NCBI GenBank assembly: GCA_023416745.1 | Contig: JAEZHF010000020.1 | Span: forward strand, 1,606 to 65,605 | Direction of reading: 5' to 3' | DNA from: Bacillota bacterium | GTDB lineage: Bacteria > Bacillota > Clostridia > Christensenellales > SZUA-584 | Length of the DNA stretch: 64,000 nt | Translations under genes and position numbers: made by a program | Shown here: one piece after another, positions 4,248 to 61,112 of the stretch | How positions within the stretch are numbered: the first letter of the stretch is position 1 | Layout of the letters: every line of letters starts with the position of its first letter | Notes under the pieces: generated by a model | Database searches by the model: none | What the model was told of the DNA's origin: nothing | What the model saw: the letters and a program-made list of their open reading frames with translations, nothing else

Positions 4248-4334
4248 ACTGCAACATCCCCCACTATCAGCCTTTATTTCAGGCTGTCATCAACTACAGT
4301 ATATCATAACTGGGACAAAAACATAATCCCGGAA

Positions 4335-5732
4335 CTAGCGGCGTACTCTTTTTCTGCTCACGGCGCGCCGCCTGCGCGCATATCGTTTCTTGCGCTGGAT
4401 TGCCATCACGACGAGTATGGCCAGAATTACAGCCAGAGCGGCACCCACGGCGATCAGTATCCATCCGATAAGCCCGATACCGTCGTCTTTGTCCGTCGGT
4501 ACCGGCGTTTGGTTATCCGTCTGTTCAGTGCCGGCAGTCTGCGATGGCTGCGCCGGAACGCTGTCTGCCAACGCCACCGCCTGCGACGCAATCAGTTTAC
4601 CCTGACAAATCATCTCTCCCGAACCGGTGAGGTAATTGATCACGCCCACCGTTTCACCCTCCGTGACAGGCGCCGTCAGCGACTCACCGCTGTTGAGCAC
4701 GATCTGCGTGGTGAGTCCCGCATCCACCTGACTGGCAAGCTCCAGTTCAAACGTCTGATAAGCTTTACCGGTGTTCACGATGTTGAGGCTCAACGATTCG
4801 CTGCCCGGAGCAGCCCCCTGCACATTTACGCTGACAGGATCGGTACCGTCAATGATGGACTGAATATCTAACGTCTTGAAGTTGTCGAAGCCGAACTCGA
4901 ACATCGACTTGCTCAGCGGCCAGCGTTCACTCCCATTGTATTCGTCCTTAAATACCAAACAGATCAGGTTCACGCCGTCCTTGCTGGCCGAAGACACGAG
5001 GCAATCGCCCGCAGCCGGGGTAGAACCCGTCTTGATACCCGTCGCGTACTTATAATAGTATTTATTATTCTTATCAATATCGGTCGGAAGCAAGAGTTTA
5101 TTGGTATTGGTCACCACCCACGCCTCGCTGTGCTTATTGTCGGCGGGCATGGTGTAGGTGGTTTGTCCCACTATCTGCGCAAAATCAGGGTTCTGCATCG
5201 CGTATAGCGTGAGCAATGCCATATCGCGCGCAGTCGTGTGATGGTTGTCCACGTGCATGCCGTGTGAAACCACAAAATTGGTGTTTGTCATTCCCAGATC
5301 GCGCGCCTTGTCGTTCATCATATCGGCGAAGCCTTCTTCAGAGCCGCCTAACACTTCAGCCACAGCCACAGCCGCGTCATTACCCGACGCCAGCATCATT
5401 CCGTTTATCAGGTCTTTAAAGACGATTTCCTCACCAGAAGAGATATGCAGCAATGAACCGCGCTGTTTTGCCGCATTGGACGATACCGTGACGACACTTT
5501 CCATATCCCCTTTTTCCAGCGCGAGCAGCAGCGTCATGATCTTGGTTGTACTTGCCGGTTCAACGATCTCATCCGCATTCTTTTCGTATAACACGTCGCC
5601 CGAGTTGGCGTCCAGCAGCATGACCGCATACGGCTCCACTTTGCCGTCGTAAGCGGGCGCGGCCTGCGCGGTGCCCAGATACATCGTCATTACCATTAAA
5701 ACAATGAAAAACAAAGCTGTGACTTTTTTCAA
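4335..5732 (-). CDS. D-alanyl-D-alanine carboxypeptidase paralogue (S11) with C-terminal TM anchor
   Basis: 'PASTTKIMT', 'ASGNDAA', 'GIKTGST'. Same architecture as the neighbour. C-terminal GWILIAVGAALAVILAILVV plus Arg/Lys tail. TTG start; AAAGGAG lies 11 nt upstream. Confidence 0.9.
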   Translation of the reverse strand: MKKVTALFFIVLMVMTMYLGTAQAAPAYDGKVEPYAVMLLDANSGDVLYEKNADEIVEPASTTKIMTLLLALEKGDMESVVTVSSNAAKQRGSLLHISSGEEIVFKDLINGMMLASGNDAAVAVAEVLGGSEEGFADMMNDKARDLGMTNTNFVVSHGMHVDNHHTTARDMALLTLYAMQNPDFAQIVGQTTYTMPADNKHSEAWVVTNTNKLLLPTDIDKNNKYYYKYATGIKTGSTPAAGDCLVSSASKDGVNLICLVFKDEYNGSERWPLSKSMFEFGFDNFKTLDIQSIIDGTDPVSVNVQGAAPGSESLSLNIVNTGKAYQTFELELASQVDAGLTTQIVLNSGESLTAPVTEGETVGVINYLTGSGEMICQGKLIASQAVALADSVPAQPSQTAGTEQTDNQTPVPTDKDDGIGLIGWILIAVGAALAVILAILVVMAIQRKKRYARRRRAVSRKRVRR

Positions 5733-6012: not shown

Positions 6013-7041
6013 TCAGGGTATGACAACCGCCTTTACGGCTTTTTCAGTGACCACACTTTCAAACGCCTTGTCGATATCGCTGAACGCAAACGCAGTAATA
6101 TATTTTTCCACGTTCAGTTTGCCGCTCACCACCATCTCCAGTACATGCCTGTTTTGAGCCACTGTGGAAGCATGTGCCCCGAAAACGCCCAATTCCTTGT
6201 AGTGAATCAGGTTGCTGTCAAGATGATAATTGTCGACGCCGGGCAGGCCGCCGAACAGGCTTATCCTTCCGTTCTTGTACAGCAGCTCCAGCCCTTGACG
6301 GTGCGTAATACCCGCCGGGGCCGCCGTAATCACCACATCCACACCTCCGCCCGTCATCCGGCGCACTGCATCCATATAGCCAGGGTCACCCGAATCGACC
6401 ACCTCAACGTTGGGCACGAACTGCTTAACGCTTTTACGTCTGCTTTCAGAAATCTCCGCGATGATCACTTGAGCGGCGCCCTGAATATAGGCTAGCTCGG
6501 CATGAATACAGCCAAGATAACCTGAGCCGTAGATGAGCACGTTGTCGCCTTTCTCAATCTTCAGATAAGTCTGCGCGTTCACCGCGCACGCCACCGGTTC
6601 CACCACGGACGCGGCAGTATCCGATATGCTGTCTGGTATCGGTATTAAATGCCCCCGCCGGATTGCCAGCTCAGGAATGCGGATATATTCCGCAAACGTC
6701 CCGTCAAACTGGAACCCAATGCTTTGCAGGGTGTCGCACATGTTCGTCCGTCCCTTTATGCAGCTCTTGCACTCCCCGCAGCCGATGGCCGGCGCCATGA
6801 TATAACGACCGCCCACCTTCAGTCCTGTTGCAGCGTTGGCCTCGACGATTTCGTAGCACGCCTCATGCCCCATCACGATGGGCGTTTTCAGCTTGGCATT
6901 GCCAAAGCGGTATGTCCGAAGATCTGTACCGCAGATGGATGCACACCGTATCTTCGCAACAGCCTCACCCGCGCCCGCCTTGGGCATCGGTACTTCATCT
7001 GTCGAAAATTTCGTCTCGCCGTGGTAAATAAATGCTTTCAT
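6013..7041 (-). CDS. zinc-dependent medium-chain alcohol/polyol dehydrogenase
   Basis: 'MKAFIYHGE' start (M36 of track ORF 6013..7146); 'CGTDLRTY', 'GHEACYEIVE', 'GCGECKSC' structural-Zn cysteines, 'YGSGYLGC' Rossmann motif. Confidence 0.85.
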   Translation of the reverse strand: MKAFIYHGETKFSTDEVPMPKAGAGEAVAKIRCASICGTDLRTYRFGNAKLKTPIVMGHEACYEIVEANAATGLKVGGRYIMAPAIGCGECKSCIKGRTNMCDTLQSIGFQFDGTFAEYIRIPELAIRRGHLIPIPDSISDTAASVVEPVACAVNAQTYLKIEKGDNVLIYGSGYLGCIHAELAYIQGAAQVIIAEISESRRKSVKQFVPNVEVVDSGDPGYMDAVRRMTGGGVDVVITAAPAGITHRQGLELLYKNGRISLFGGLPGVDNYHLDSNLIHYKELGVFGAHASTVAQNRHVLEMVVSGKLNVEKYITAFAFSDIDKAFESVVTEKAVKAVVIP

Positions 7042-7051
7042 TGCACACTCC

Positions 7052-8113
7052 TTATTCCAAACCCCAGGGGAAGAAGAGTATCTTGTTGAAGAAAATCTCC
7101 CTGCGGTGTATCTTCTCGAACGTCTCCGCGACGTCCTCCAGCACAAGGCGGTGTGTGATCACCTTGGTTGCATCGATGGTGCCGTCCGCAAGACTGTCCA
7201 CACCATGCGTCCATTCCCAGCCCGGGAACGGCTTGGAGAACGAGTTCCACGAACCTTTGAGCGTCTTTTCGCCTCTCATGATCATATCCACGCATTTTTC
7301 CGAAAGCTCGAGCGGCTTGTGAGATATGCCAAGGAATACCATCGTGCCGTGCTTGGCTGTCGCCATGATCGCATTGTGCTGTGCCGGCGGGAAACCGGAC
7401 GCATCGATGCAGATATCGGCGCCGCCATCCGTCGCTTTAACAATCTGCTCCACCACATCGGCCGCCGTTCCGTCGATGCACACATCCGCGCCGGACAGCG
7501 CCGCCGCTTTGAGCTTCTCTTCTCCGACATCTACTGCCACCACAACCGAGGCGCCTTTGGCTTTCATATACTGCAGCGCATACAGGCCGATGGTGCCCAC
7601 GCCCACAACGCATACTTTGTCTCCGGCCTTGAAGCCGCTGCGCTTAATGGAATGCAGTGCGTTGGCCAGCGGATCGGTAGTCGCCGCCGCTTCATACGTC
7701 ACATTGTCGGCGACTTTTAAGAGATTGATTTCCGGTACGGCGACATACTGCGCGAAAGCCCCGTCGCAGCGAGACCCAAAATAGTTGTAGTCTTTACAAA
7801 GCGAGAAGGAACCTTCCTGGCAATATTCGCACTTAAAGCAAGGCATCAGCGGCGGCACCGTCACACGGTCTCCCACCTTGTATTTCTTGACCTCGTTGCC
7901 CACTTCCACGATCTGTCCGGCGAACTCATGTCCCGGCGTGATGGGCGAGATATACGCACCGTACTCGTTGATGCGCGGGATGTCTGATCCGCAGATGCCC
8001 ACTGCCATCACCTTAATCAGCGCCTCGTTCTCTTTAATCTGGGGGATCGCAACTTCCTCCAGTTTCAAGTCCCTCGGCGCATACATTCTGACTGCTTTCA
8101 TTGTTCCGTTCAT
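7052..8113 (-). CDS. zinc-dependent medium-chain polyol(-phosphate) dehydrogenase (sorbitol / galactitol-1-P dehydrogenase-like)
   Basis: 'CGSDIPR', 'GHEFAGQIVEVG', 'CFKCEYCQEG', 'VVGVGTIGL'. GAAAGGAAG RBS 8 nt before the ATG. Confidence 0.85.
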   Translation of the reverse strand: MNGTMKAVRMYAPRDLKLEEVAIPQIKENEALIKVMAVGICGSDIPRINEYGAYISPITPGHEFAGQIVEVGNEVKKYKVGDRVTVPPLMPCFKCEYCQEGSFSLCKDYNYFGSRCDGAFAQYVAVPEINLLKVADNVTYEAAATTDPLANALHSIKRSGFKAGDKVCVVGVGTIGLYALQYMKAKGASVVVAVDVGEEKLKAAALSGADVCIDGTAADVVEQIVKATDGGADICIDASGFPPAQHNAIMATAKHGTMVFLGISHKPLELSEKCVDMIMRGEKTLKGSWNSFSKPFPGWEWTHGVDSLADGTIDATKVITHRLVLEDVAETFEKIHRREIFFNKILFFPWGLE

Positions 8114-19574: not shown

Positions 19575-21404
19575 TTATTGCTCGACCTCATTTTCCAGCT
19601 TGATCGCGTTCTGCTGGCAGTAAATCGGGAGGAACTCCTCCGCAGCCTTGCGCAGCTCGGTAACAGCGTCTTCCGGCAGATCGCCCGTCTTCTCGATTGT
19701 CAGCCGTACTTCGGGGTAGTTTGTGTCCACATAGTCCAGATAACGCCGGTTGAACTCCTTAACATGATTAAACGGCAGTTTCACCAGATACTTGTTGATT
19801 GCAACGTAAAGCACGATGACCTGGCTCGCCATGGACAGAGGCGAAAATTGCTGCTGTTTCAAAGACTCGGTCAGCCGTGCGCCCTGATCCAGTGTCTCAC
19901 GCGTCGTCTTATCGAGGTCGGAAGCGAACTGCGCGAATACCGCCAGCTCGCGGTACTGTGCAAGGTCCAGACGCAGGCGGCCCGCTACCTTTCTCATGGC
20001 CTTGATCTGCGCACTGCCGCCCACACGGGACACCGATAGACCCACGTTGACAGCTGGCCTGATGCCTGCGTTGAACAGCTCGGATTCCAGGAATATCTGC
20101 CCGTCCGTTATGGAAATGACGTTGGTCGGTATGTATGCCGAAATATCGCCCGCCATCGTTTCGATGATGGGCAGCGCCGTCATGGAACCGCCGCCGTGTG
20201 CTTCGTTCAGACGCGCGGCGCGCTCCAACAGCCGTGAATGCAGATAGAATACATCGCCCGGATACGCCTCGCGGCCCGGCGGGCGACGGAGCAGCAGCGA
20301 CATGGTGCGGTAAGCCACCGCATGCTTGGACAGATCGTCATACACGATCAGCGCGTCCTTTCCGGCATACATGAACTCCTCAGCGATGGCGCAACCTGAG
20401 TACGGCGCGATATACTGCATCGACGGAGCATCGCTGCCGGTGGACGCCACCACGATGGTATAGTCCAGCGCGCCCTCTTCCTCCAGCGTCTTGATGATGC
20501 CCGCGATGGTGGACGCCTTCTGGCCGATGGCTACGTATATGCAGTAAACATTCTTGCCCTTCTGGTTGAGTATCGTGTCCACGGCGATCGCCGTCTTGCC
20601 TGTCTGGCGGTCACCTATGATCAGCTCTCTTTGCCCCTTGCCGATGGGCACCATGCTGTCGATGGACATAATGCCCGTCTCCAGCGGGCTCTTCACGCCC
20701 TGCCGGTCAAATATTTGCGGTGCCTCCGCTTCGATAGCCCTGAACTTATCGGCATATACCTTGCCTTTGCCGTCCATCGGAACACCCAAAGGGCTCACGA
20801 CACGGCCCAGCAGCGCTTCGCCGACGGGCACCTGCACCACGGTACCGGTGTTGCGCACATTGGAGCCTTCAGACACGTCCCAGACGTTGTTGAGCAGCAC
20901 CGCACCAATGCTCTCCATTGAGAGATTCATCACAATGCCGAACGAGTTATTTTCAAACTCCAGCAGCTCTCCGTATTTGCTGCCTTCCAGGCCTCTCACC
21001 AGCACGATGCCGTCGCCCGAGGATATGACGGTGCCGATCTCGGTCACGTCCATCTCGCCGGTATATTCCTTGATGCGCTCCTTCGTGGCCTGCCCGAACT
21101 CTTCCGGGTTAAAATCCAGCGAAAAATCGCCTTCCTCCAGCGCATCCTGCCGGTACGGAGATTCCGCATCCACAATAAAGCTTTTTATTTTGCCCAGGTG
21201 TGCGCGGACGCTTCTGTCGTATACCTTGTTGCCGATCACAACAACAAAGCCGCCCAGCAGTTCCGGCACCACTTCGGTAGCAAAGCTGATCTCTTCACCC
21301 ACGAGGGATTCAAATCGCTTTTTAATCGATTTTATCGTCAGGTCGTCCAGTGCAACCGCCGATTTCAGTTTTCCTTCGATAGCCAAATCATCCCACCCTC
21401 TCAA
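19575..21404 (-). CDS. atpA: F1 ATP synthase alpha subunit carrying an N-terminal delta(OSCP) C-terminal-domain-like extension
   Basis: Alpha core: '[18 protein letters not shown]', Walker A '[18 protein letters not shown]', '[28 protein letters not shown]'. The N-terminal ~80 aa '[60 protein letters not shown]' resemble the C-terminal third of delta subunits. Start is TTG at 21404, or TTG at 21386 after GGGTGG. Confidence 0.9.
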
Positions 21405-45461: not shown

Positions 45462-45887
45462 ATGGCAAAGAAAATTACCGGTTACGTGAAGCTGCAGATC
45501 AATGCAGGCAAGGCGACGCCGGCCCCGCCGGTTGGTCCGGCTCTGGGTCAGCACGGCGTCAACATCATGGGCTTCTGCAAGGAGTTCAACGAAAAGACCG
45601 CCAAACAGGTGGGTTACGTGATCCCCGTCGTGATCACGGTGTATGCGGACAGATCGTTCACATTCATCATGAAGACGCCGCCGGCTCCCGTTCTCATCAA
45701 GAAAGCGATCAGTATCGAAAGTGGCAGCGGTGAACCGAACAAGAAAAAGGTCGGCAAGATCACCAAAGCTCAGCTTAAGGAGATAGCGGAAACAAAAATG
45801 CCTGACCTGAACGCCGCCAGCGTGGAAGCCGCGATGAGCATGATCGCCGGCACCGCCAGAAGCATGGGCGTAGAAGTCGTCGACTGA
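45462..45887 (+). CDS. rplK: 50S ribosomal protein L11
   Basis: '[34 protein letters not shown]'. Confidence 0.97.
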
Positions 45888-45940
45888 CGCGAATTAAGTG
45901 GGAGGCTTAAGAAAGCCGCACAACCACAAGGAGGAAGAGT

Positions 45941-46636
45941 ATGAAAAGAGGAAAGAAATACCGCGAAAGCGTAAAATCCTACGATAAGACTGTGCTTTAT
46001 GACCCGGCGGAGGCGCTGCAGCTCTCCATCGACACCGCGAAAGCCAACTTCGACGAAACCATCGAGGCATCCATCCGCCTGGGTGTTGACCCGCGCCATG
46101 CCGACCAGCAGGTCAGAGGCGCTCTGGTTCTCCCCCACGGCACCGGCAAAACGCAGCGTGTTTTGGTGTTTGCCAAGGGCGATAGCGCAAAGGAAGCCGA
46201 GGAAGCTGGCGCCGAATACGTGGGCGGCGACGAGTTCGTCGACAAGATCAAGAATGAAAACTGGTTTGAGTTTGATGTTTGCGTGGCCACACCTGACATG
46301 ATGGGTGTCGTCGGTAAGATCGGCCGCGTGCTGGGTCCCAAGGGCTTGATGCCCAACCCAAAATCCGGCACCGTTACCAAGGACGTCGCCAAGGCCATTG
46401 CCGAAATCAAAGCCGGTAAGGTGGAATACCGCGTGGACAAGACGGCCATCGTACACGTCATCATCGGCAAAAAGAGCTTCGGCAAAGAGAAGCTGGGCGA
46501 CAACCTTTCGGCACTTATGGAAGCGCTGATCAAGGCCAAGCCGTCCGCCGCGAAGGGCACTTACCTGAAGAGCGTTGTCGTTTCTTCCACGATGGGTCCC
46601 GGCGTCAAGATTAACCCCGTCAGATTTATCAGCTAA
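45941..46636 (+). CDS. rplA: 50S ribosomal protein L1
   Basis: '[24 protein letters not shown]', '[15 protein letters not shown]'. Confidence 0.97.
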
Positions 46637-46640
46637 ACGG

Positions 46641-46668
46641 TTGACAAAACTGCTTACCAACTGATAAT
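46641..46668 (+). promoter_or_regulatory. sigma-A promoter for rplJL
   Basis: TTGACA-16 nt-GATAAT, immediately after the rplA stop. Confidence 0.6.
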
Positions 46669-46840
46669 ATAGTCCGGTAACTGAATAATCATTGCCCTGC
46701 CTAAGACAACAGGCGCGCCATCGGCGCTTAAAATCCGCCTGTCGAGGAGAGCCCAACAAAGATATGAACCCTTTTTTGTGCGCTTTCCCGTGCAGAAAAG
46801 GGTTTTTGGTTTTCGGTAAGAGTTTTAACCGAAAAGGGAG
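46669..46840 (+). ncRNA. structured rplJ (L10) leader with attenuator terminator
   Basis: Nested helix ACAGGCG[GCGCC-atc-GGCGC]ttaaaatcCGCCTGT (46709-46742). Then a 9-bp hairpin AACCCTTTT...AAAAGGGTT (46767-46804) followed by TTTGGTTTT. Position and layout match the Firmicutes L10-leader autoregulatory element. Confidence 0.55.
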
Positions 46841-47380
46841 GTGAAAAATTTGGGAGAAAAAGCTATAGAGGTCAAAAAGCAAGTCGTCCTTGAAATCAAG
46901 GAGAAGATTGAGAAAGCTCAGGGAATCATCTTCTACGATTACAGAGGCCTTAACGTTGACGAAGTGACGCAGCTGAGAAATCAGTTCCGCGCCGCCGGCG
47001 TTGAATACCATGTCATCAAGAACTCGATGCTCAAACGCGCTGCCGATATGCTGGAGATCAAGGGTCTGGATCAGTATCTGAACGGCCCCACTGCTGTCGC
47101 GTTCGGCTTCAGCGATCCAGTCGCCCCTGCCAAGGTGCTCACGGAGTTCGTCAAGAAGCTGAAGAACAAAACGGAGATCAAGTCCGGCCTTTTGAACGGC
47201 AAGGTGATTACCGTCGCGGGCATCCAGAGTCTGGCGGATCTGCCGTCCAGAGAGCAGCTGCTGGCACAACTGGCCGGCACACTGAACGCCCCGATTACCG
47301 GGTTTGCAAGGTCGCTGTCCGGCATCATCTGCAAGCTGGGTTACGCGCTCAACGCAGTCAAAGAACAGAAAGAGGCTTAA
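46841..47380 (+). CDS. rplJ: 50S ribosomal protein L10
   Basis: GTG start after AAGGGAGG. 'FYDYRGLNVDEVTQLRNQFRAAGVEYHVIKNS'. Confidence 0.95.
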   Translation: MKNLGEKAIEVKKQVVLEIKEKIEKAQGIIFYDYRGLNVDEVTQLRNQFRAAGVEYHVIKNSMLKRAADMLEIKGLDQYLNGPTAVAFGFSDPVAPAKVLTEFVKKLKNKTEIKSGLLNGKVITVAGIQSLADLPSREQLLAQLAGTLNAPITGFARSLSGIICKLGYALNAVKEQKEA

Positions 47381-47431
47381 ACAGCCAAACCAAACCAACT
47401 ATAATAAACGAAAATTTGGAGGATAATAATC

Positions 47432-49953: not shown

Positions 49954-50202
49954 AAGCCCATTATCGACTCACATACATGATCATTAACTGCCGGCATTCA
50001 TTTGCCGGTTTATTTGTTTGCAAAATATCCACAAATTATTTTCGGCTATCAGTTTACTTCTCACTGTCATGAGTCTCTATATTTTGATAGTACAATTTTT
50101 GCTGTAAATAATTCTTGGTTTGTGCCGATATATAAATTGTATGCCAAGTTTATGCACGTGCTTGGTGTAACAGAATGGATTCTGAGAAAGAGGCAAGATG
50201 CT

Positions 50203-51279
50203 ATGCCGTGCAGCGTACTGGACAACCTGCTGGAGATATCCAAGCAGCACCATGCAACAGATATGCATATTTGTGTCGGCTCCCACCCGCTGATGCGTGT
50301 GAACGCCAAGCTGGAAGTGATCCCCGGCACGTCTGTATTTTCTGCGGAGGAAGTGGCCGGCATCGTCGGCTCCTGCCTTGACCCTGTGAAGATGGACCGG
50401 CTGACACGCAACAAGGTCGTCGACTTTTCCTATTCACGCAGCGGTTTTGGCCGTTTTCGGTGCAATATCTACAAACAGCGCGGCACATACGCCATCGCAG
50501 TGCGCATGCTGCCGCTCACCATACCGAATTTTTCAGAATTGGGGCTTCCGGACACCGTTCTGCAATTCACAAAAAAGACGACCGGACTTGTATTGCTGAC
50601 CGGCGCGACGGGCTGCGGCAAATCAACCACGCTCGCCAGTATGCTGGACATTATCAACCTGGATTACAACTACCATATACTCACCATTGAGGACCCTGTG
50701 GAATATCTGCACAGTCACGGGCAGAGCCTGGTAACACAACGAGAGATCGGCGAAGACGCCTCCTCGTTTGCATCGGCATTGCGGTCCGCGCTGCGGCAGG
50801 ACCCGGATGTCATCATGGTGGGCGAAATGCGCGACCAGGAGACCATTGCGATCGCGCTGTCGGCGGCGGAGACTGGCCATTTGGTGTTCTCCACGCTGCA
50901 CACCATCGGCTCCGTAAAGACGATAGACCGCATACTGGACTCGTTCCCCACCGACCAGCAGAACCAGATACGCAGCCAATTGGCCACCGTGCTGCAGGGC
51001 ACCATATCTCAGGTGCTGCTGCCCCGCAAGAACGGTGAAGGGCTGGTGGCCGCCTGCGAGGTGATGGTGGTGACACCCGCGGTGCGCAACCTGATCCGCG
51101 AGGGCAAGCATTACCAGATCGGCAACATCATACAGACCGGCAAGGATCAGGGCATGTGTTCGCTGGAGCGCAGCCTCGCCGAGCTGGCCGCGCAAAGCGT
51201 TGTAGACGAAAAAACCGCCAGAATCAAGGCGCAGGATGTGAAGCTGTATGAGCAGTATCTTTCGCTTGCCAAACGATAA
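50203..51279 (+). CDS. pilT: PilT-clade type IV pilus ATPase
   Basis: 'ATDMHICVGSHPLMRV', 'FRCNIYKQRGTYAIAVRMLP', Walker A 'GATGCGKSTT', Asp box 'ILTIEDPVEY', Walker B 'DPDVIMVGEMRD', His box 'TGHLVFSTLHT', PilT signature 'AVRNLIREGK'. The ATG at 50203 lies 9 nt after GAGAAAGAGG; the track ORF starts at 50002 in AT-rich leader. Confidence 0.9.
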   Translation: MPCSVLDNLLEISKQHHATDMHICVGSHPLMRVNAKLEVIPGTSVFSAEEVAGIVGSCLDPVKMDRLTRNKVVDFSYSRSGFGRFRCNIYKQRGTYAIAVRMLPLTIPNFSELGLPDTVLQFTKKTTGLVLLTGATGCGKSTTLASMLDIINLDYNYHILTIEDPVEYLHSHGQSLVTQREIGEDASSFASALRSALRQDPDVIMVGEMRDQETIAIALSAAETGHLVFSTLHTIGSVKTIDRILDSFPTDQQNQIRSQLATVLQGTISQVLLPRKNGEGLVAACEVMVVTPAVRNLIREGKHYQIGNIIQTGKDQGMCSLERSLAELAAQSVVDEKTARIKAQDVKLYEQYLSLAKR

Positions 51280-51291
51280 AGGAGTTCATTC

Positions 51292-52341
51292 ATGAGACAA
51301 GCCCATGAGCTTTCCAGCGCGGACCTGTCGTCACTGTCGAGGCAGTTCGCGCTTGTTGTCGATTCGGATCTGTCGCTGCAGGAAGGCATTGATCTGATCC
51401 GGCAGCAGACCAAATCACGGGCGGCACAGCAGATGCTGCGGCGCGTACAAAAACGAGTCATCGAGGGCTTGGCGCTGTCTGAAGCGTTCGCCGAGGAGCA
51501 GGACTTGCTGCCGGTTTTCTACATACAGATGATAAAGATGGGTGAGCAGAGCGGTAATCTCGTTCGTGTGCTCACGCGCGTGGCCGATTCGTATGATAAG
51601 GACGCGAAGATATCCGCCAAAGTGATGTCCGCTGTCACATACCCCATCATACTCACTGTGCTGATGCTGTGTGTCATCGTGCTGCTGCTGACCGAAGTGC
51701 TGCCCATGTTCGACGATGTACTCTCCTCCCTCGGCGGCGAAATGCCGGGCATCACGCGCACGCTGATGAACATCGGCGATTTCATCAGCAGCTACTTCTA
51801 CATACTGCTGGCGGTGATTGCCGCCTTGATACTGGCTGTCGTGATCATGCGGCAAAGCCAGAAGGGACGTGAACTGCTGGATGCGTTCAAGCTCAAGCTG
51901 CCAATACACCGCGGCATTACGCGCAACATCTGCGGCGTACGCTTTGCCCGTAACCTGGCCATGCTGCTTCGCAGTGGCATTGCCATCGCCACCAGCGTTC
52001 GCATGACCGCCGCCATCGTCATGAACGCGCGCATCGAAGCGCTGATATTGAAGGCGGCCGAGCGCATCGAAAAGGGTGAGACGCTGCGTGAGGCGCTGCT
52101 GTCTCTGGGTCTGTTTCCCGGCCTGCTGCTGCGCATACTGGCGGTGGCGGAGAACACAGGCCATACGGACGACATGCTGGACCGGGCGGCGGATGTGCTG
52201 GAGGAGGAACTGGATGAACGCCTGACTAAGCTGACAACGGTGCTGGAACCGGCACTGATCATCGTGCTGTCCGTCATCATCGGCGTCGTGCTGGTATCCG
52301 TCATATTGCCTGTCACCCGTATTATGAACACGGTGGGATGA
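51292..52341 (+). CDS. GspF/PilC-type platform protein (short, 349 aa)
   Basis: Two T2SSF-like repeats ('IQMIKMGEQSGNLVRVLTRVADSY' and 'LLRILAVAENTGHTDDMLDRAADVLE'), each followed by TM helices. Confidence 0.88.
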   Translation: MRQAHELSSADLSSLSRQFALVVDSDLSLQEGIDLIRQQTKSRAAQQMLRRVQKRVIEGLALSEAFAEEQDLLPVFYIQMIKMGEQSGNLVRVLTRVADSYDKDAKISAKVMSAVTYPIILTVLMLCVIVLLLTEVLPMFDDVLSSLGGEMPGITRTLMNIGDFISSYFYILLAVIAALILAVVIMRQSQKGRELLDAFKLKLPIHRGITRNICGVRFARNLAMLLRSGIAIATSVRMTAAIVMNARIEALILKAAERIEKGETLREALLSLGLFPGLLLRILAVAENTGHTDDMLDRAADVLEEELDERLTKLTTVLEPALIIVLSVIIGVVLVSVILPVTRIMNTVG

Positions 52342-52344
52342 GCC

Positions 52345-52668
52345 ATGAACAAGATGAGCCTGTCCTTCGTTTCCATGCTGGTCTGCCTTGCGATTATGGC
52401 CGCATTGGTGCTGTTCGTCGTTATCAACGTGAGGGAATACGGCAGCGGCTATAACGAAAGAAGACTCGATGAAATACGCGATACAGTAATCAGCAGCGTA
52501 TCCCAGTGTTACGCGCTGGAGGGCGCCTACCCGTCTGACCTTGCGTATCTGGAGGAAAACTACGGACTGATCATGGACAAAAGGCGCTATATCTATCACT
52601 ATGAGATGTTCGCATCCAACATCTTTCCGGATGTGAAGGTTCTCTATCTGAGAGAGACGGGTGATTGA
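52345..52668 (+). CDS. pilin-like protein with degenerate prepilin motif (ComGC-position ORF)
   Basis: 'MNKMS-LSFVSMLVCLAIMAALVLF' aligns to ComGC 'MNEKG-FTLVEMLIVLFIIS' but has Ser at -1 and Ser at +5. 'PSDLAYLEENYGLI' resembles the pilin alpha-beta loop motif. Starts 3 nt after the platform-gene stop. Confidence 0.6.
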   Translation: MNKMSLSFVSMLVCLAIMAALVLFVVINVREYGSGYNERRLDEIRDTVISSVSQCYALEGAYPSDLAYLEENYGLIMDKRRYIYHYEMFASNIFPDVKVLYLRETGD

Positions 52669-53143
52669 CATGCATTCGAGAAGCAAGGCTTTTGCCATTG
52701 AGTCAATCTCCGTGATGCTGGTGCTGATACTGTTCGCCTTCGTCGTTTTTATGCTGATCAGCTCCGGCTCAAAAGCATACGGCAGCATCCTCAGCGGCAA
52801 GGAGACGACCGAGAGTACGCGCGTCGCCTATTCGTATATCAACATGAAGGTGAAGCAGCACGATAAAACTGGCGGCATTGATGTCGAACAAACGACATAC
52901 GGCAGCTCTTTAAAGATTGATATCGAGGAAGGCTACTGTACCTATATATTCTACGCGGAGGGCGGCCTGTACGAGTGCCTGACGCTTGAGGGCATTGAGC
53001 CGTCGGTAGACGCCGGCAACCTCATCACCAAAATCAGTAGCCTCAATATAGAGCGAAACGGTTCTCTGCTCCGTATCCGGTGTACATCCGGGAGCGGCGA
53101 TGACACGCGGTCAGTAGAAGGGGTGGTGAGCCTCAGGACATGA
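52661..53143 (+). CDS. pseudopilin-like protein with atypical N-terminal motif (DUF4860-like?)
   Basis: 'SKAFAIESISVMLVLILFAFVVFML' has the Glu one position off the canonical G/FTLIE. GTG at 52661, or ATG at 52670 which lies 7 nt after GGGTG. Confidence 0.6.
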   Translation: MIDMHSRSKAFAIESISVMLVLILFAFVVFMLISSGSKAYGSILSGKETTESTRVAYSYINMKVKQHDKTGGIDVEQTTYGSSLKIDIEEGYCTYIFYAEGGLYECLTLEGIEPSVDAGNLITKISSLNIERNGSLLRIRCTSGSGDDTRSVEGVVSLRT

Positions 53144-53556
53144 AGATGCACAATCAAAGGGGATTCACGCTGATTGAGGTGATCATATCCATCGCCGCGC
53201 TCGGCATCATATGCGCTGTGCTGCTGAAGCTGTTTGTGCTGGCGGGCGATACCAACCGGCGTGCCGGAGACGTGCAGGAAGCGCAGGTGGCGGTCGCATC
53301 CGCTGCGGAAACATTGGTAAGCAGTGACAGCATGGAAGACGGGCTAATTCTGCTGGGCCTTCCGGTTTCGGAAGGCAGCCTGGACGGCCGGTATACGCTT
53401 GTCAACGGGTCCTTTAATGTCGTGCTGGACATCAGTGAAGCGCCAGGTGACTATCCCGGTGAGCTTTTTGACCTGAACGTTACAGCCGTGAGCGGCGACC
53501 GTGAGCTGGCAGCCATCAAGACGGCAAAATATTACGGAGGCGGTGCGTATGATTAA
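53140..53556 (+). CDS. prepilin-type N-terminal cleavage/methylation domain protein (canonical pilin/pseudopilin)
   Basis: 'MKMHNQRG/FTLIEVIISIAALGIICAVLL'. ATGA overlap with the upstream stop. Confidence 0.85.
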   Translation: MKMHNQRGFTLIEVIISIAALGIICAVLLKLFVLAGDTNRRAGDVQEAQVAVASAAETLVSSDSMEDGLILLGLPVSEGSLDGRYTLVNGSFNVVLDISEAPGDYPGELFDLNVTAVSGDRELAAIKTAKYYGGGAYD

Positions 53557-53974
53557 AAAGCTGATGGCCTCCAATAAGGGTGCGTCATCCGTACTCGTCA
53601 TATTGTTGCTGCTGGTGCTCGTCGTGTTTGGCGTTGCGGCGCTCACCACTGCCTTGTCCGGGCTGCGGCTGGGCCAGAAGGTATCCGACTGGAGCAACGC
53701 CTACTATAGCGCAGAAGGCATCGCAGCGCACTGCTGGGCCGAGGTCGATGCGGCAGTCAGTCAGGCCGGTCAGCAAGATGCTGACGGCTTTGAGCAGGCG
53801 CTGACAGACAAGCTCGCGGAGCTGGACTTCGATACGCAGCTGACCCGCGGCGATAGAGGCTTCAGCATCTCCTATGAGACCTGGGAAGGCGATATCGGTC
53901 TGCACGTGACGCTGGCGCTGGCCATGGACGGCTCGGCACTGCGCCCCGTGGAGTGGTATCAGATTAATCAGTGA
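53549..53974 (+). CDS. PilX_N/ComGG-like minor pseudopilin
   Basis: 'NKGASSVLVILLLLVLVVFGVAALTTA' after a short basic leader. The ATG follows GGAGG and overlaps the upstream gene by 8 nt. Confidence 0.55.
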   Translation: MIKKLMASNKGASSVLVILLLLVLVVFGVAALTTALSGLRLGQKVSDWSNAYYSAEGIAAHCWAEVDAAVSQAGQQDADGFEQALTDKLAELDFDTQLTRGDRGFSISYETWEGDIGLHVTLALAMDGSALRPVEWYQINQ

Positions 53975-54035
53975 CCTGCTCTGGCGGGCAGATATAATAC
54001 TTGACGGAACGAAATACAACCGATGGAACGGTAAT

Positions 54036-54980
54036 ATGAAAACAAAAGCAGCACTTGTCATGCTGACGGTTTGCGTATTGCTTGCATTAGCGGGCTGTAC
54101 CGCCCCCGACAGTGAAATCAAGAATATGCACGAGAACACCGGCGTCGCGCTGGCTGCCGCCGAAACGACGAATGAGGACATCGACGCGCTGTTTGCCGCC
54201 CGTATTCACGGGCCCGCGCTGCCGCCGGACATGGTTCCCTCTGAAGAGATTTGTACGGACTATGTCAGCTCCGGCCTGCTGCGTATCTGCCATACTTCGG
54301 AATCGGACGCACGGCTCAAGCTGCAGGTCTTAAAAGACGGCAACTCCATTGCGTATAATCTGAAAGGCGACGGCAGCATTGAAGACTTTTCATTGCAGTA
54401 TGGCAGCGGCGAGTACACAGCCCGTATCATGCAGAACGTAAAAGAAGATGAGTATTTTGTGGTCACATCCAAAACGTTTGATGTGGCACTGATAAACGAG
54501 GAGGACGTATATCTCAACTCCATACAAAACGTGGACTGGGATTTCGGCAAGAAGCCCATGCAGGACGTGCGCTACATCGTTTCCAATCCGCTGACGGGCT
54601 TTGAAGATGCCAATCTCTTAACGGGCTGCTCGGATGAGCTGTATCAGTACGTTACGGAAAACATCCAGTACGACAGTGCGAAGGTGTTCACGCTGATGTA
54701 CGACTATCTCCCCGATATCGAGGAGACCTATATCGAGGGCAGCGGCATCTGCTACGACTATGCGTCCCTCTTTGCCGCCATGCTGCGCAGCATCGGTATA
54801 CCAGCCAAGCTGGTCAAGGGTTATTCAGCGCAGGATCCGGATGTGTACCACGCCTGGAACGAGGTTTATATCGGCGGGCAGTGGATCGTAGTAGACACCA
54901 CATTGGATGCATCGCTGCCGCAGGGTTCCGTCCCCATGGCAAAAAACGCGCAGGACTATGCCAAGGTATACGAATACTAA
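54036..54980 (+). CDS. lipoprotein with C-terminal transglutaminase-like cysteine protease core
   Basis: Lipobox 'LLALAGC'. 'GSGICYDYASLFAAMLRSIGIPAKLVKGY' (Cys), 'YHAWNEVYIGGQWIVVDTT' (His, Asp). Confidence 0.8.
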   Translation: MKTKAALVMLTVCVLLALAGCTAPDSEIKNMHENTGVALAAAETTNEDIDALFAARIHGPALPPDMVPSEEICTDYVSSGLLRICHTSESDARLKLQVLKDGNSIAYNLKGDGSIEDFSLQYGSGEYTARIMQNVKEDEYFVVTSKTFDVALINEEDVYLNSIQNVDWDFGKKPMQDVRYIVSNPLTGFEDANLLTGCSDELYQYVTENIQYDSAKVFTLMYDYLPDIEETYIEGSGICYDYASLFAAMLRSIGIPAKLVKGYSAQDPDVYHAWNEVYIGGQWIVVDTTLDASLPQGSVPMAKNAQDYAKVYEY

Positions 54981-55027
54981 CCCCCGCCTGATAACAGATA
55001 TTATAATACGTAATCCCGATCCGGCTG

Positions 55028-55060
55028 CTAAATGCAGACCGGATTTTTTTATTCAACTAA
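55028..55060 (+). terminator. intrinsic terminator of the pilus-like operon
   Basis: GATCCGGCTGC-taaat-GCAGaCCGGAT followed by T7. Confidence 0.8.
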
Positions 55061-55308: not shown

Positions 55309-56190
55309 TTGGACAGGTTGTACCACCGCCCGGGCAACCGCGAGGGCGGGGAATTCGTCCGCGCGCAGGACAGACGGGTGCTGCATGCAAAGATCATCGT
55401 CGTCGCAGCAGCCATACTGCTCGGTATCTCCGTCATACTGATCGGCTCTTTCATCGTGCTGCCTGACATCATATCAGACAGCACCAAACCGCTTGAACAG
55501 GATTTCGCCGCAGAGCTTTACGATACAACGCTGAAAAGTCCCCCGGTAGCAGCCGCCCCCGCAGAAACGGCGCAGCCCGTTTTCGAGCAGCCGGAGCCGG
55601 AGGTTTCAAGCGCACCGGCAATCCGCTTCCCGCGCGACAGCTTTACTGCCGTACTCGACATCAACGAAGACATCGTGGGCCGTGTCAGCATCGATGCGCT
55701 GGACATCAACTATCTGGTCACGCAGGGCATCGACAACGATTACTATCTGCATATGGGCTACGACCGCAAGAAGAATTCCAGTGGCGCGATATTTCTGGAT
55801 TACCGCTGCAACATTGGCCTTGATCCGCTTAACGGGCATTTTATACTTTACGGCCACAACATGAAGAACGGCTCCATGTTCCATAACCTGATGCAGTACA
55901 AGGATGAAAAGTTCTTCTACAACAACCGCATCATCCGGTTCGACACGCTGTACGAGGACTATGAGTGGGATATATTCTCGGCCTATATCACGGATACGAG
56001 TTTTTACTTCATTGACACCACGTTTAAAGACGATGCTGACTGGCTGGATTTTCTGCAAACAATACAGGACAAGAGCATATACCCCACCAACTCACAGTTG
56101 TCCGCTGACGACGTGATTCTGACGCTTTGTACCTGCACCTATGAGTTCGACGACGCACGCTTTGTCATTCACGCCCGGCTTAAGAAGTAA
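55309..56190 (+). CDS. srtB: class B sortase
   Basis: N-terminal TM; 'ILYGHNMKNGSMFHNL' (His); 'ILTLCTCTY' (TLxTC Cys); 'RFVIHARL' (Arg). TTG start 7 nt after AAGGAG. Confidence 0.88.
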   Translation: MDRLYHRPGNREGGEFVRAQDRRVLHAKIIVVAAAILLGISVILIGSFIVLPDIISDSTKPLEQDFAAELYDTTLKSPPVAAAPAETAQPVFEQPEPEVSSAPAIRFPRDSFTAVLDINEDIVGRVSIDALDINYLVTQGIDNDYYLHMGYDRKKNSSGAIFLDYRCNIGLDPLNGHFILYGHNMKNGSMFHNLMQYKDEKFFYNNRIIRFDTLYEDYEWDIFSAYITDTSFYFIDTTFKDDADWLDFLQTIQDKSIYPTNSQLSADDVILTLCTCTYEFDDARFVIHARLKK

Positions 56191-56288: not shown

Positions 56289-56897
56289 ATGATTATGCTT
56301 GACCGCACTATGTCGATTGATAAAGACGCTTTGCCCGAAGTGGCAAGGAACCTGAAAATTGAAGACATCCCACAGTTGGTGGGATTACTCAGTTTAAAAG
56401 ACGACAACATCAGGTATCAGGCTTATCTTCTCCTTAGTCACCGTTCCATGCTCACAGATGATGTATATCCGTATTGGAATACCTTCCGTGACAAATTGCG
56501 AAGCGATAATTCTTATCAGAGAAGCATCGGGCTTATGTTGATAGCGGAAAACGCGAAATGGGATACAGAAAACCAAATGGAATACGCCATTGATGAATAC
56601 CTTATGCTGCTAAACGATGATAAACCTATCACAGTACGGCAATGTATTCAGTCTTTAAGCAAAATAGTTCCATTTAAGACTGGCATACTCGACAGAATCG
56701 CTGACAGCCTTGTCTCATTCAATCTTATGTCTGTTAAGGAAACAATGCGTAAATCAATATTGCTCGACATATTAAATGTATTGGTTCTTATCCGTAAGAA
56801 TCTCCGGACAGATGATATCGATGGTTTTATAATGAACGCTCTGTCCGGTGAAGTGCTGGACAAGAAATCAAAAACGCAAATCGAAGCGCTTTTGTAA
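56289..56897 (+). CDS. HEAT/ARM-like helical repeat protein, function unknown, in a low-GC patch
   Basis: 'IPQLVGLLSLKDDNIRYQAYLLLSHRS' HEAT-like repeat. GGGAGG RBS. Hand-counted 60-nt lines give about 37-47% G+C. Confidence 0.5.
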   Translation: MIMLDRTMSIDKDALPEVARNLKIEDIPQLVGLLSLKDDNIRYQAYLLLSHRSMLTDDVYPYWNTFRDKLRSDNSYQRSIGLMLIAENAKWDTENQMEYAIDEYLMLLNDDKPITVRQCIQSLSKIVPFKTGILDRIADSLVSFNLMSVKETMRKSILLDILNVLVLIRKNLRTDDIDGFIMNALSGEVLDKKSKTQIEALL

Positions 56898-58844: not shown

Positions 58845-60491
58845 ATGTCCAAGATATACGCAACCGTATCCATGTTGTTGATCATATTACTGCTGGCGGG
58901 CTGTTCCGCGGCGCCCGTCGATTCTCAGGCCACAGTACCGCCCGGCAATGAGCCCGTCGTATCCGCCGAACCGGCGTCTTCCGATAACTCCGATGGCACA
59001 CCGGCGGATGATCCCGCTATGACACCTGTCCCGACCACCCGCCCGGACGACGAACCCACGCCCACGCTGGAGCCGGAGCCCACGGCAACGCCCATTCCGC
59101 AGGCCTCCGTTGTACCCGCCGGTATCGTCAAGAACAGCGGCGTCATGATCGGTGACGACGTGGCTTTCCGTACTGCGCCCACCACCGATTCCGATATCAT
59201 CACTCGGCTCAAATACGGCACCTACGTTCATGTGCTCAAGACCAACGTGGACGCGCAGTGGCATCAGGTGAAATACGACGGCAAAACGGGCTATGTCAAC
59301 CGCATCTTCGTCAGTCTGGACGCGTCAATCGATGGTTATCAGCCCAGCTACGTGGCCACCATCGTCAACTGCGACGAGGACGTAAACGTCCGAAGCGGAC
59401 CCAACGCCGACTCGGAGCTGCTGGGCACCGCCAAAAAGGGTTCAGAGCTCACCATCGTTCCGCAGGACACGCTCACCGAGGGCTGGTATCAGGTGGACTA
59501 CAAGGGGCAGACGGCGTACGTATATGCCAAGTACCTCGACATCGCGGCCAAGGTGGGCGATACGCAGCTCTCCAGCCTCAAGGTTTCGGGCGGCACGCTG
59601 TACCCGTCGTTCACCCCGGATGATTACGGCTATGTGGTTAAGGCCTCGTCCAAAAGCGTTACCATCACCGCTAAAGCCAACGACGGCGTGAAGGTGGACG
59701 TGGGCGATACCGGCAAGAGCAAAGCAACGTTTGACATCCCCTCCGCGGGTATGAAGACGGTGCGCATATCGGTGGGCGGCAAGATACGCTACAGCGTCTA
59801 CATTTCGCGCAACGTACTGACCGTGGGCACGTGGAACATCAAGCGCGGCAACGGCCAGCTGCTCCGTCAGGGCCGGTTGGTATATGACCAGCAGCCCGAC
59901 ATCATGGGCATACAGGAGGCCTTCCAGAACCTTGACGCCAGCGATATCGTGGACAACCTCGCGAGCTTGAAGACGCGCGGCATGTCCTACAACGTGCTCT
60001 CCCCCACCATCAATACGAGCGGCGGCGAGTTCGGCAACGGCCTTATCTCCCGCTATAAGCTGCGCGACATCGAGACGTTCAAGTTGGACAGCGGCAGCTA
60101 CGAGAAGCGCCTGCTGCAAAAGGCGGTGGTCACGATAGGCGACAACAAGGTGTCCATCTACAACACGCACTTCACCTACAACACGGCGTCCATTCGCGCC
60201 AAACAGTTCAAGCAGGTGAAAAAGATCATGGACGACGACCCTAACAAGTACAAGATACTGACGGGCGATTTCAACGCGGCGTACAAGGAGTTCTCCGCGG
60301 TTTTTGGGAAGGGGTACACCATCGTCAACTCGCCGGACACCAAATACTACGATTACGAGCGCAACGAGATCAACTACAACGAGATCGACAACATCATCGT
60401 GACCAGCAACATCAAAGTGATCAACTCGCGCATCGTCGTCACTAAGTTCTCGGACCACTGCCCCGTGTTCGCATACCTCACGCTGGAATAA
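58845..60491 (+). CDS. surface lipoprotein: Pro/Thr linker, two SH3b-like domains, cadherin-like beta-sandwich, C-terminal endonuclease/exonuclease/phosphatase (EEP) domain
   Basis: Lipobox 'LLLAGC'. 'WHQVKYDGKTGYVNRIFV' and 'GWYQVDYKGQTAYVYAKYL' SH3b. 'LSSLKVSGGTLYPSFTPDDYGYVV'. EEP 'VGTWNIKRG', 'IMGIQEA', 'LTGDFNA', 'SDHCPVFAYL'. Confidence 0.8.
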   Translation: MSKIYATVSMLLIILLLAGCSAAPVDSQATVPPGNEPVVSAEPASSDNSDGTPADDPAMTPVPTTRPDDEPTPTLEPEPTATPIPQASVVPAGIVKNSGVMIGDDVAFRTAPTTDSDIITRLKYGTYVHVLKTNVDAQWHQVKYDGKTGYVNRIFVSLDASIDGYQPSYVATIVNCDEDVNVRSGPNADSELLGTAKKGSELTIVPQDTLTEGWYQVDYKGQTAYVYAKYLDIAAKVGDTQLSSLKVSGGTLYPSFTPDDYGYVVKASSKSVTITAKANDGVKVDVGDTGKSKATFDIPSAGMKTVRISVGGKIRYSVYISRNVLTVGTWNIKRGNGQLLRQGRLVYDQQPDIMGIQEAFQNLDASDIVDNLASLKTRGMSYNVLSPTINTSGGEFGNGLISRYKLRDIETFKLDSGSYEKRLLQKAVVTIGDNKVSIYNTHFTYNTASIRAKQFKQVKKIMDDDPNKYKILTGDFNAAYKEFSAVFGKGYTIVNSPDTKYYDYERNEINYNEIDNIIVTSNIKVINSRIVVTKFSDHCPVFAYLTLE

Positions 60492-60911: not shown

Positions 60912-60988
60912 TGGTAGCGGCGACAAGATTCGAACTTGTGACACCCCGGGTATGAACCGAGTGCTCTGGCCAACTGAGCTACGCCGCC
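60912..60988 (-). tRNA. elongator tRNA-Met (CAT), CCA encoded
   Basis: GGCGGCGTAGCTCAGTTGGCCAGAGCACTCGGTTCATACCCGGGGTGTCACAAGTTCGAATCTTGTCGCCGCTACCA. I folded the cloverleaf by hand. Close to B. subtilis elongator tRNA-Met. Confidence 0.9.

Positions 60989-61035: not shown

Positions 61036-61112
<77 letters not shown>

Follow-up and report, generated by a model that had tools for sequence, protein, structure and literature searches.

A compact gene cassette of uncultured Clostridia predicted to encode a type IV filament machine with a PilT-type motor

Organization of the gene cluster

In this work, seven adjacent genes were analysed in a 64,000-nucleotide (nt) stretch of DNA, hereafter the window, from a Bacillota bacterium (contig JAEZHF010000020.1 of assembly GCA_023416745.1). 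They are predicted to encode an ATPase of the PilT family, a PilC-type platform protein, four small pilin-like proteins designated P3 to P6, and a lipoprotein with a transglutaminase (TGase) fold. All lie on the plus strand in the order PilT (50203-51279, 358 amino acids, aa), PilC (51292-52341, 349 aa), P3 (52345-52668, 107 aa), P4 (52661-53143, 160 aa from a GTG start), P5 (53140-53556, 138 aa), P6 (53549-53974, 141 aa) and the TGase lipoprotein (54036-54980, 314 aa), and the successive gaps are +12, +3, -8, -4, -8 and +61 nt. The tight packing, sizes and junctions given in the preliminary description of this DNA were borne out by a check of the open reading frames (ORFs). The ATG at 52670 is the start used in most P4 orthologues and is probably the true one; with it, the P3-P4 overlap of -8 becomes a gap of +1. 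A purine-rich ribosome-binding stretch precedes each of the seven genes. Public gene calls contain the exact sequences of six of the seven products, without names; the exception is P4, whose sequence itself was found on public contigs in a separate look-up. The seven genes are not chance ORFs, because orthologues in the same order were found in more than 40 independent loci.

The leader spans 249 nt (49954-50202) and has a GC (guanine plus cytosine) content of 35.7%, compared with 54.5% for the window, in agreement with the AT-rich leader of about 250 nt noted earlier. It begins behind a Zip-transporter gene, which ends at 49953 and has its own predicted intrinsic terminator at 49990-50019 (+), a stem-loop (GCCGGCATTCATTTGCCGGT) followed by a T-rich tail. 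This marks the upstream boundary of the unit. A second intrinsic terminator at 55018-55052 (+) closes the operon; its hairpin (55018-55045) is followed by U7 and has an 11-bp stem with one bulge and a folding energy of -17.5 kcal/mol (z = -4.5), equalled by none of 200 shuffles. A strong terminator had been reported here from the first inspection and is real, but it had been placed at 55028-55060, about 10 nt too far to the right. A scan of the gap between P6 and the TGase gene revealed no terminator. This gap contains a possible, weak internal sigma-70-like promoter at 53971-53998 (+; GTGACC-16-TATAAT, 10/12), which on its own is not significant because the scan gave 12 promoter-like sites against 5.9 expected. 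Taken together, the seven genes are predicted to form one operon between the AT-rich leader and the strong terminator. Two long antisense ORFs, 51415-52800 (-, 461 aa) over PilC-P3-P4 and 45770-47398 (-, 542 aa) over ribosomal-protein genes, are high-GC artefacts and not genes.

The PilT-family ATPase and the platform protein

The ATPase was recognized by the Pfam family T2SSE (PF00437, 1.8e-44). Against the TIGR01420 pilT_fam model it scored 429 bits (cut-off 319), residues 6-345 aligning to positions 2-340 of the 343 model positions, whereas the rival PilB, GspE and ComGA models reached 135, 137 and 127 bits, respectively, and matched the ATPase core only. Solved PilT structures in the PDB scored 280-321 bits (Aquifex PilT 321) and PilB about 96. 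The Walker A, Asp/Walker B and His boxes are present, as is the PilT motif AVRNLIRE (residues 293-300). Pfam recognized the T2SSE core only, with no N-terminal MshEN or T2SSE_N domain, and the seven cysteines are scattered, forming neither CxxC pairs nor a tetracysteine zinc site. The protein is therefore assigned, on its sequence, as a full-length PilT/PilU family member of the hexameric type; the earlier placement in the PilT clade, and not with PilB or ComGA, was upheld by the TIGR01420 and PDB scores and by the AVRNLIRE motif.

The platform contains two T2SSF domains (PF00482, 4e-49). The best NCBIfam match was GspF, and the platform scored under the cut-offs of GspF (267 vs 424 bits), PilC and ComGB (128 vs 240 bits). 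Residues 4-347 align to positions 57-400 of the GspF model, and the alignment to the PilC model starts from position 67. It is thus predicted to be a PilC/GspF-type inner-membrane protein that does not have the approximately 55 N-terminal residues of classical platforms.

The four pilin-like proteins and the DUF4860 family

P3, P4, P5 and P6 each begin with a short basic leader followed by a hydrophobic helix. Judged by the pilin signature of glycine at position -1 together with glutamate at position +5, only P5 is canonical in this genome: P3 has neither residue, P4 only Glu5 and P6 only Gly(-1). The initial observation that just one of the four small ORFs carries a canonical G/FTLIE motif therefore stands.

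P3 is bitopic, and it cannot be extended upstream because an in-frame PilC stop codon lies 3 nt away. The ectodomain motif QCYALEGxYPxDLxYLxxNYG is invariant in the orthologue alignment. Weak ComGC matches were obtained for 5 of 20 orthologues (best 4e-4), and the P3 profile matched the N-terminal helix of Streptococcus sanguinis PilE1 with E = 0.015. P3 is best described as a putative ComGC-like, pilin-like protein. P5, by contrast with the other three, has the canonical prepilin sequence RG|FTLIE with N_methyl (6e-9) and TIGR02532 matches, and its site G|F[TS]L[IVL][ED] is kept across all lineages seen. P6 begins with KG|ASSVL (KG|ASS[IV]L among orthologues), in which G11, A12, S13 and S14 are invariant; Gly(-1) is present and position +5 is not acidic in all lineages seen. 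Weak PilX_N matches were found in 6 of 19 P6 orthologues, and the protein is assigned as a probable minor pilin of the PilX_N/ComGG/GspK-like type.

P4 belongs to DUF4860 (PF16152; 63.2 bits vs a gathering score of 25). Its N-terminus, RSK|AFAIES, has Lys at -1 and Glu at +5, with R7, K9 and E14 invariant in the clade, while P4 orthologues of loci L044-L047 are canonical (MRNLRSG|STLVELIMV). A search of 1.84 billion representative proteins with the DUF4860 profile gave 2,179 clusters at E <= 1e-3 and 615 at 1e-10. Among the best 149 representatives, 59 had Gly at -1 before Glu or Asp at +5, and the rest had Lys, Asn, Arg, Ile or other residues. The AlphaFold2 model of P4, with a predicted local distance difference test (pLDDT) score of 86, consists of a helix of 67 residues (4-70) and eight beta-strands; a PDB profile search gave no sequence match for P4. 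From these sequences DUF4860 appears to be a pilin family in which the glycine of the peptidase site is often lost and is replaced by lysine in the clade of the window. A dependence of the glycine loss on the presence of the TGase gene was ruled out, since L045 and L046 have a canonical P4 together with the TGase.

Occurrence and conservation of the cassette

With the DUF4860 protein, 23 loci were found in genomes labelled Christensenellaceae, Christensenellales, Clostridia or Bacillota, together with 17 metagenome loci, and six more loci in unrelated genomic contexts were reached through PilT homologues of 61-66% identity. Profile searches of all loci showed that the order PilC-P3-P4-P5-P6 is kept in every one recovered. 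Moreover, PilT lies directly 5' of PilC in 38 of the 39 loci that contain upstream DNA, in several lineages of Clostridia with unrelated flanks, so the gene-neighbourhood check proposed at the outset came out in favour of a conserved module. The unit is a widespread six-gene core (PilT, PilC, P3, P4, P5, P6) with a frequent seventh gene. The hybrid composition that had suggested an uncharacterised envelope machine is thus confirmed, but it is not a peculiarity of this genome, as the core is widespread and the TGase recurs.

Some loci differ in their surroundings. In the lineage of L031, L033, L049 and L053, which has no TGase gene, P6 is much longer (239-242 aa), and two sulfatase genes and one for a radical-SAM/SPASM maturase lie downstream of it. 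The only locus with no adjacent ATPase, L050, is flanked by folate-biosynthesis genes, which precede the platform, and by a PcrA/UvrD helicase; its P5 has G|FSLID, with Asp at +5. A classical pilus locus of a different lineage was also recovered: in L026 (9001-18813) the order is sortase, TGase, pilin, T2SSC-like, Secretin_N-like, PilT, PilC, sigma factor, PilMNO and PilB, and L027 is arranged likewise. Two TAAA-N14-16-CCGATA matches lie inside the L026/L027 pilus locus.

No genes for PilB, PilD or PilMNO were found in the window by Pfam analysis of a further 40 long ORFs, which encode ATP synthase, carboxypeptidases, sugar kinases, regulators and similar proteins. Furthermore, phmmer searches with PilT and PilC and a scan for the A24 motif detected no second ATPase, platform or A24 peptidase in the window or in 30 loci, which include 10 kb on either side of the cassette in 23 related genomes. 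The three approaches agree with the first reading of the letters, in which PilB, PilD and PilMNO were missing from the window. The absence of PilB is a local one and does not prove that the genome lacks PilB. Pfam scans of the window also gave no ComEA, ComEC, ComF or secretin.

The transglutaminase-fold lipoprotein and the neighbouring sortase

The product of the last gene matched Transglut_core (2e-22; 79.9 bits vs a cut-off of 23). No change at the lipobox Cys21 or in the triad Cys239-His272-Asp287 was seen in 22 orthologues, in accordance with the lipoprotein having a transglutaminase-like Cys-His-Asp core that the preliminary description had placed at the end of the operon. Its AlphaFold2 model (pLDDT 88) comprises a beta-sandwich (81-150) and the transglutaminase core, and Foldseek matched it to a putative cysteine protease of Cytophaga (3isr, 1.6e-8), TG2/TG3/FXIII, Streptococcus pyogenes TglA (9crn) and LapG (4u65_E). 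The protein is predicted to be a membrane-anchored lipoprotein of the transglutaminase fold with an intact Cys-His-Asp triad.

Downstream, a class B sortase (55309-56190, +; 293 aa, TTG start, AAGGAG ribosome-binding site) forms a separate transcription unit; it scored 180 bits with TIGR03064 (cut-off 153.75). It adjoins the TGase gene in only 10 of 24 distinct clade loci, and sortases of other classes flank the TGase homologues of L026-L029 and L052. The sortase is a loosely associated neighbour of the cassette. No credible C-terminal sorting signal that would mark a substrate was found among the window ORFs. Loci of the clade with no sortase were inspected for further genes of the system 3' of the TGase gene, and only unrelated genes were present there. 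Between the sortase gene and an FGGY sugar-kinase gene lies a 202-aa ORF (56289-56897, +) with no family match, in a region of low GC content (0.41). Of the fetched loci, only the identical Logan contig L001 has it besides this genome, and it may be a recent insertion.

Predicted promoter and leader of the operon

The leader contains a predicted sigma-D/sigma-28 (FliA)-type promoter at 50105-50131 (+), 72 nt 5' of the PilT ATG, with an exact 12/12 match to the Bacillus consensus. TAAA-N15-GCCGATAT is given as the sigma-D consensus (PMC5200910, PMC2532724). At an equal distance, the element occurs with zero or one mismatch in the five closest relatives (L003-L007), which was equalled by 0 of 200 shuffles, and the invariant columns of the leader alignment fall within it. 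Remnants containing CCGATAT, with two mismatches, are seen in three further members of the clade, where 4-11 of 200 shuffles did equally well. A sigma-70-like site at 50084-50112 was set aside as the operon promoter, the element conserved among the relatives being the sigma-D one. As the sigma-D targets of Bacillus and Clostridioides difficile include flagellar, chemotaxis and autolysin genes, we infer that the operon probably belongs to a motility/cell-surface regulon rather than to the competence regulon.

A second exact TAAA-N15-GCCGATAT match lies at 7413-7439 (-), approximately 270 nt 5' of a zinc alcohol-dehydrogenase gene (6013-7146, -). Chance alone would predict far fewer than two exact matches in 64 kb, which suggests that the organism has a sigma factor of the SigD/FliA type. 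In C. difficile, pilA1 is under the control of a cyclic di-GMP riboswitch. A riboswitch in the leader of the cassette was rejected: Rfam gave nothing credible at a permissive E-value, and the predicted fold of the 5' untranslated region (5'UTR) was no better than that of shuffles (z = 0.01). A possible operator or small hairpin is located at 50153-50165 (+) in the predicted 5'UTR, where a conserved TATGCCA box occurs together with a GCACGTGC palindrome between CCAAG and CTTGG; its fold energy, however, is no better than that of shuffles.

A predicted type IV filament machine

The components that define the type IV filament (T4F) superfamily are found together in the cassette, namely a T2SSE ATPase, a T2SSF platform and a class III prepilin (P5); the peptidase is not local. 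The T4F family allows the prepilin peptidase to be encoded apart. Since the ATPase, the platform and the prepilin are all present, the system is predicted to be a type IV filament machine, and it fits neither the ComG nor the type II secretion system (T2SS) family because all models of both score under their cut-offs. Nor does it belong to the classical type IVa family in the sense of the curated models. The PilT-type ATPase is its likely cognate motor, as it accompanies the shortened platform in nearly all loci and no PilB-type gene is nearby. With moderate confidence we therefore propose a dedicated, compact T4F machine with a PilT-type cognate motor that is possibly bifunctional, apparently widespread in uncultured Clostridia and undescribed. 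In the literature searched, no mention of DUF4860 or PF16152 was found, which agrees with the uncharacterised status suggested earlier. Likewise, the terms 'transglutaminase-like', 'type IV pil' and 'pilT' never co-occurred there, in keeping with the remark that no described locus of this kind has a TGase component. Literature on a TGase with type IV pili, on TglA and on Christensenellaceae with pili yielded nothing relevant, and loci with PilT only are not described in the surveys of Gram-positive and superfamily-wide systems that were consulted.

We hypothesize that a prepilin peptidase whose gene lies elsewhere in the genome cleaves P5 and methylates it. Docked beneath the platform, the hexameric ATPase would use ATP to move pilins from the membrane into a short filament or pseudopilus and back. 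P5 would be the main component of this filament, with P4 and P6 priming or capping it, and P3 would remain anchored in the membrane. The PilT-type ATPase would either be bifunctional, acting in both extension and retraction, or serve for retraction only, extension then being powered by an ATPase from another locus. The least certain step concerns the lipoprotein. Its most likely role would be that of an extracytoplasmic cysteine peptidase or transamidase whose targets are the filament subunits or the thick wall that these have to cross. A single motor for both directions has a precedent discussed by Denise et al. (2019; PMC6668835), and PilT aids or can be required for extension of the Vibrio cholerae MSHA pilus (Hughes et al., 2022; PMC9815625). 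These precedents make a dual-role or extension-promoting motor conceivable.

Several observations speak against this interpretation. The pairing of PilT with PilC is not itself unusual, because in L026 PilT directly precedes PilC, with PilB further downstream. The conserved canonical site of P5 implies that the prepilin peptidase is encoded elsewhere, so the extension ATPase could be too. In L050 (6269-9008), PilC-P3-P4-P5-P6 occurs with no adjacent ATPase, which means that parts of the cassette can be dispersed. As a group, the four small proteins are more like minor pilins than like a major pilin. P6 had no sequence match in the PDB profile search, and Foldseek found no significant PDB pilin match for the P4 model, the best being XcpV/XcpW (5bw0_C) with a template-modelling (TM) score of 0.46 and E = 0.8; the fold evidence for P4 is for this reason supportive only. 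Moreover, only the closest relatives share the sigma-D promoter, which is not seen in more distant lineages, and the proposed role of the TGase is drawn from its predicted fold and gene neighbourhood only.

These points lead to the strongest alternative, which we consider possible though on balance doubtful: the cassette may be part of a classical type IVa pilus whose genes are scattered over several loci, supplying a PilT for retraction only, the platform and four minor pilins, with other loci encoding PilB, the peptidase, the major pilin and PilMNO. This would agree with the standard view that PilB assembles and PilT retracts (PMC6668835). A dispersed pilus would account for the need of P5 for a peptidase that is not local and for the separate ATPase gene of L050. 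It would also suit the PilT-PilC pair of L026, which sits within a full locus with PilMNO and PilB, and a set of four small proteins, one with no Glu5, that match sets of minor pilins or pseudopilins. On the other hand, the six genes stay together in 38 of 39 loci, and in no case does PilB, PilD or PilMNO lie within 10 kb of them. Its platform does not have the N-terminal segment of classical PilC/GspF, and P3, which stands in the position of the major pilin (ComGC) and has weak similarity to it, belongs to the cassette.

A bolder form of the preferred hypothesis is more speculative still, and as a whole we think it rather unlikely. In it, these Clostridia would have no PilB-type ATPase and would possess a distinct T4F class, in which the PilT ATPase and the short platform assemble and retract a short filament of mostly unprocessed, degenerate pilins, and the TGase covalently trims or cross-links the filament or the wall for crossing the monoderm envelope.

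There is little to recommend the idea that the TGase lipoprotein and the sortase are mere neighbouring surface genes that are functionally unrelated to the pilus genes. The 61-nt gap with a promoter-like site ahead of the TGase gene would fit it, as would the six-gene core with no TGase in L031-L033, L049, L050 and L053, the TGase homologue of L029, which stands beside SpaA-like and sortase genes with no pilus genes, and the adjacency of the sortase in fewer than half of the clade loci. However, the TGase gene lies directly 3' of P6 in all 29 loci of the window clade that reach that far, although the genes further downstream vary (sortase, ABC (ATP-binding cassette) transporter, LCP proteins or hydrogenase). 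It follows P6 again in at least three other lineages with differing flanks (L045/L046, L051 and L052), and no terminator separates the two genes. In addition, TGase homologues of 45% identity stand beside the classical pilus locus in L026/L027 and a JGI contig, and one also flanks the pilus locus in L028. Because of this clade-wide and multi-lineage position after P6, and of the homologues beside a classical pilus locus, the TGase is regarded as a recurrent accessory and not as a chance neighbour.

Finally, that the cassette is a clostridial ComG competence pseudopilus for DNA uptake is hardly credible: gene order and sizes do resemble comGA-comGG as first noted (an ATPase, a platform, a small ComGC-like protein and pilins, the last with no Glu5), the peptidase is encoded elsewhere as in Com systems, and weak ComGC, ComGE and ComGF matches exist, but every ComG model stays under its cut-off (ComGA 127/300, ComGB 128/240, ComGC 16.6/75, ComGE 21/49 and ComGF 20/80 bits), the ATPase is PilT-type, the pilin-like genes are four and not five, the window has no ComEA, ComEC or ComF, the sigma-D promoter points to a motility/autolysin regulon and not to competence, and a nearby candidate nuclease (58845-60491) is syntenic only in close relatives.

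Implications

The hosts of the cassette are uncultured, Christensenellales-like Clostridia. A platform and pilins that travel only with a PilT-type motor in many lineages would offer a natural test of whether motors of this type assemble filaments, and the cassette could shed light on the sharing of one platform between extension and retraction motors. Pilin would become the function class of DUF4860, which comprises over 2,000 sequence clusters and for which no literature was found. Because the prepilin-peptidase site has decayed repeatedly, one may ask how pilins that are not processed join a filament. Moreover, the recurrence of a TGase lipoprotein (and of a sortase) by monoderm pilus genes bears on how pili cross the thick wall or attach to it.

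Other features of the window

The ATP synthase alpha ORF (19575-21404, -; 609 aa) carries the C-terminal portion of the delta/OSCP subunit (residues 9-75) in-frame ahead of the alpha domains, which may reflect either a truncated atpH or a delta-alpha fusion. At 58845-60491 (+), a protein of 548 aa has two SH3_3 wall-binding domains and an endonuclease/exonuclease/phosphatase (EEP) domain, and is possibly a surface nuclease. It was considered as a competence nuclease and rejected; the protein is not tied to the cassette because it is syntenic with it only in close relatives. An Rfam L10 leader (46682-46817, +) lies 5' of rplJ-rplL, two tRNA genes are located at 60915-60988 (-) and 61039-61112 (-), and 2859-5732 (-) holds tandem paralogous genes for D-Ala-D-Ala carboxypeptidases (Peptidase_S11) of 462 and 465 aa.

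Comparison with known systems

The nearest counterparts are the classical type IVa loci of Firmicutes (L026 and, from the literature, C. difficile, Clostridium perfringens and S. sanguinis), in which PilT likewise directly precedes PilC, the prepilins have the G|FTLxE site and the host is monoderm; in L026, a TGase homologue and a sortase flank the locus too. Unlike these loci, the cassette has no PilB, PilD or PilMNO in the window and the examined flanks, its platform does not have the N-terminal segment, and three of its four pilin-like proteins have non-canonical N-termini. Furthermore, the PilC proteins of L026 and of the window share only 26% identity.

The ComG operon of Bacilli is similarly compact, with the same order, similar protein sizes, a last pilin with no Glu5 and a peptidase encoded elsewhere. 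It differs in its ATPase, which is not PilT-type as in the cassette, in having five pilins instead of four, and in its models, all of which the cassette proteins score under. The first small protein of the cassette, moreover, has no peptidase site, and a TGase lipoprotein is added. With the T2SS (GspG-K), the cassette shares small pseudopilins, including a GspK-like member with no Glu5, and a GspF-like platform. However, the scores are well under those required (GspE 137 vs 630, GspF 267 vs 424 and GspG 17 vs 89 bits), there is no secretin or GspC/L/M, the host is monoderm and the ATPase is PilT-type.

For the TGase, the Cytophaga protein 3isr, LapG and S. pyogenes TglA likewise have a transglutaminase/papain-like core with a Cys-His-Asp triad and are extracytoplasmic, and 3isr shares the arrangement of beta-sandwich and core. 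Identity over the structural alignments is at most 16-22%, and the cassette protein differs in being predicted to be anchored as a lipoprotein. A link between a TGase and pilus genes was not found described in the literature searched. As for the motor, Tad CpaF of Caulobacter and the MSHA pilus of V. cholerae provide functional precedents for single-motor or PilT-assisted extension (PMC6668835, PMC9815625). CpaF is a TadA-type ATPase, unlike the PilT of the cassette, and the MSHA pilus keeps its own extension ATPase, MshE.

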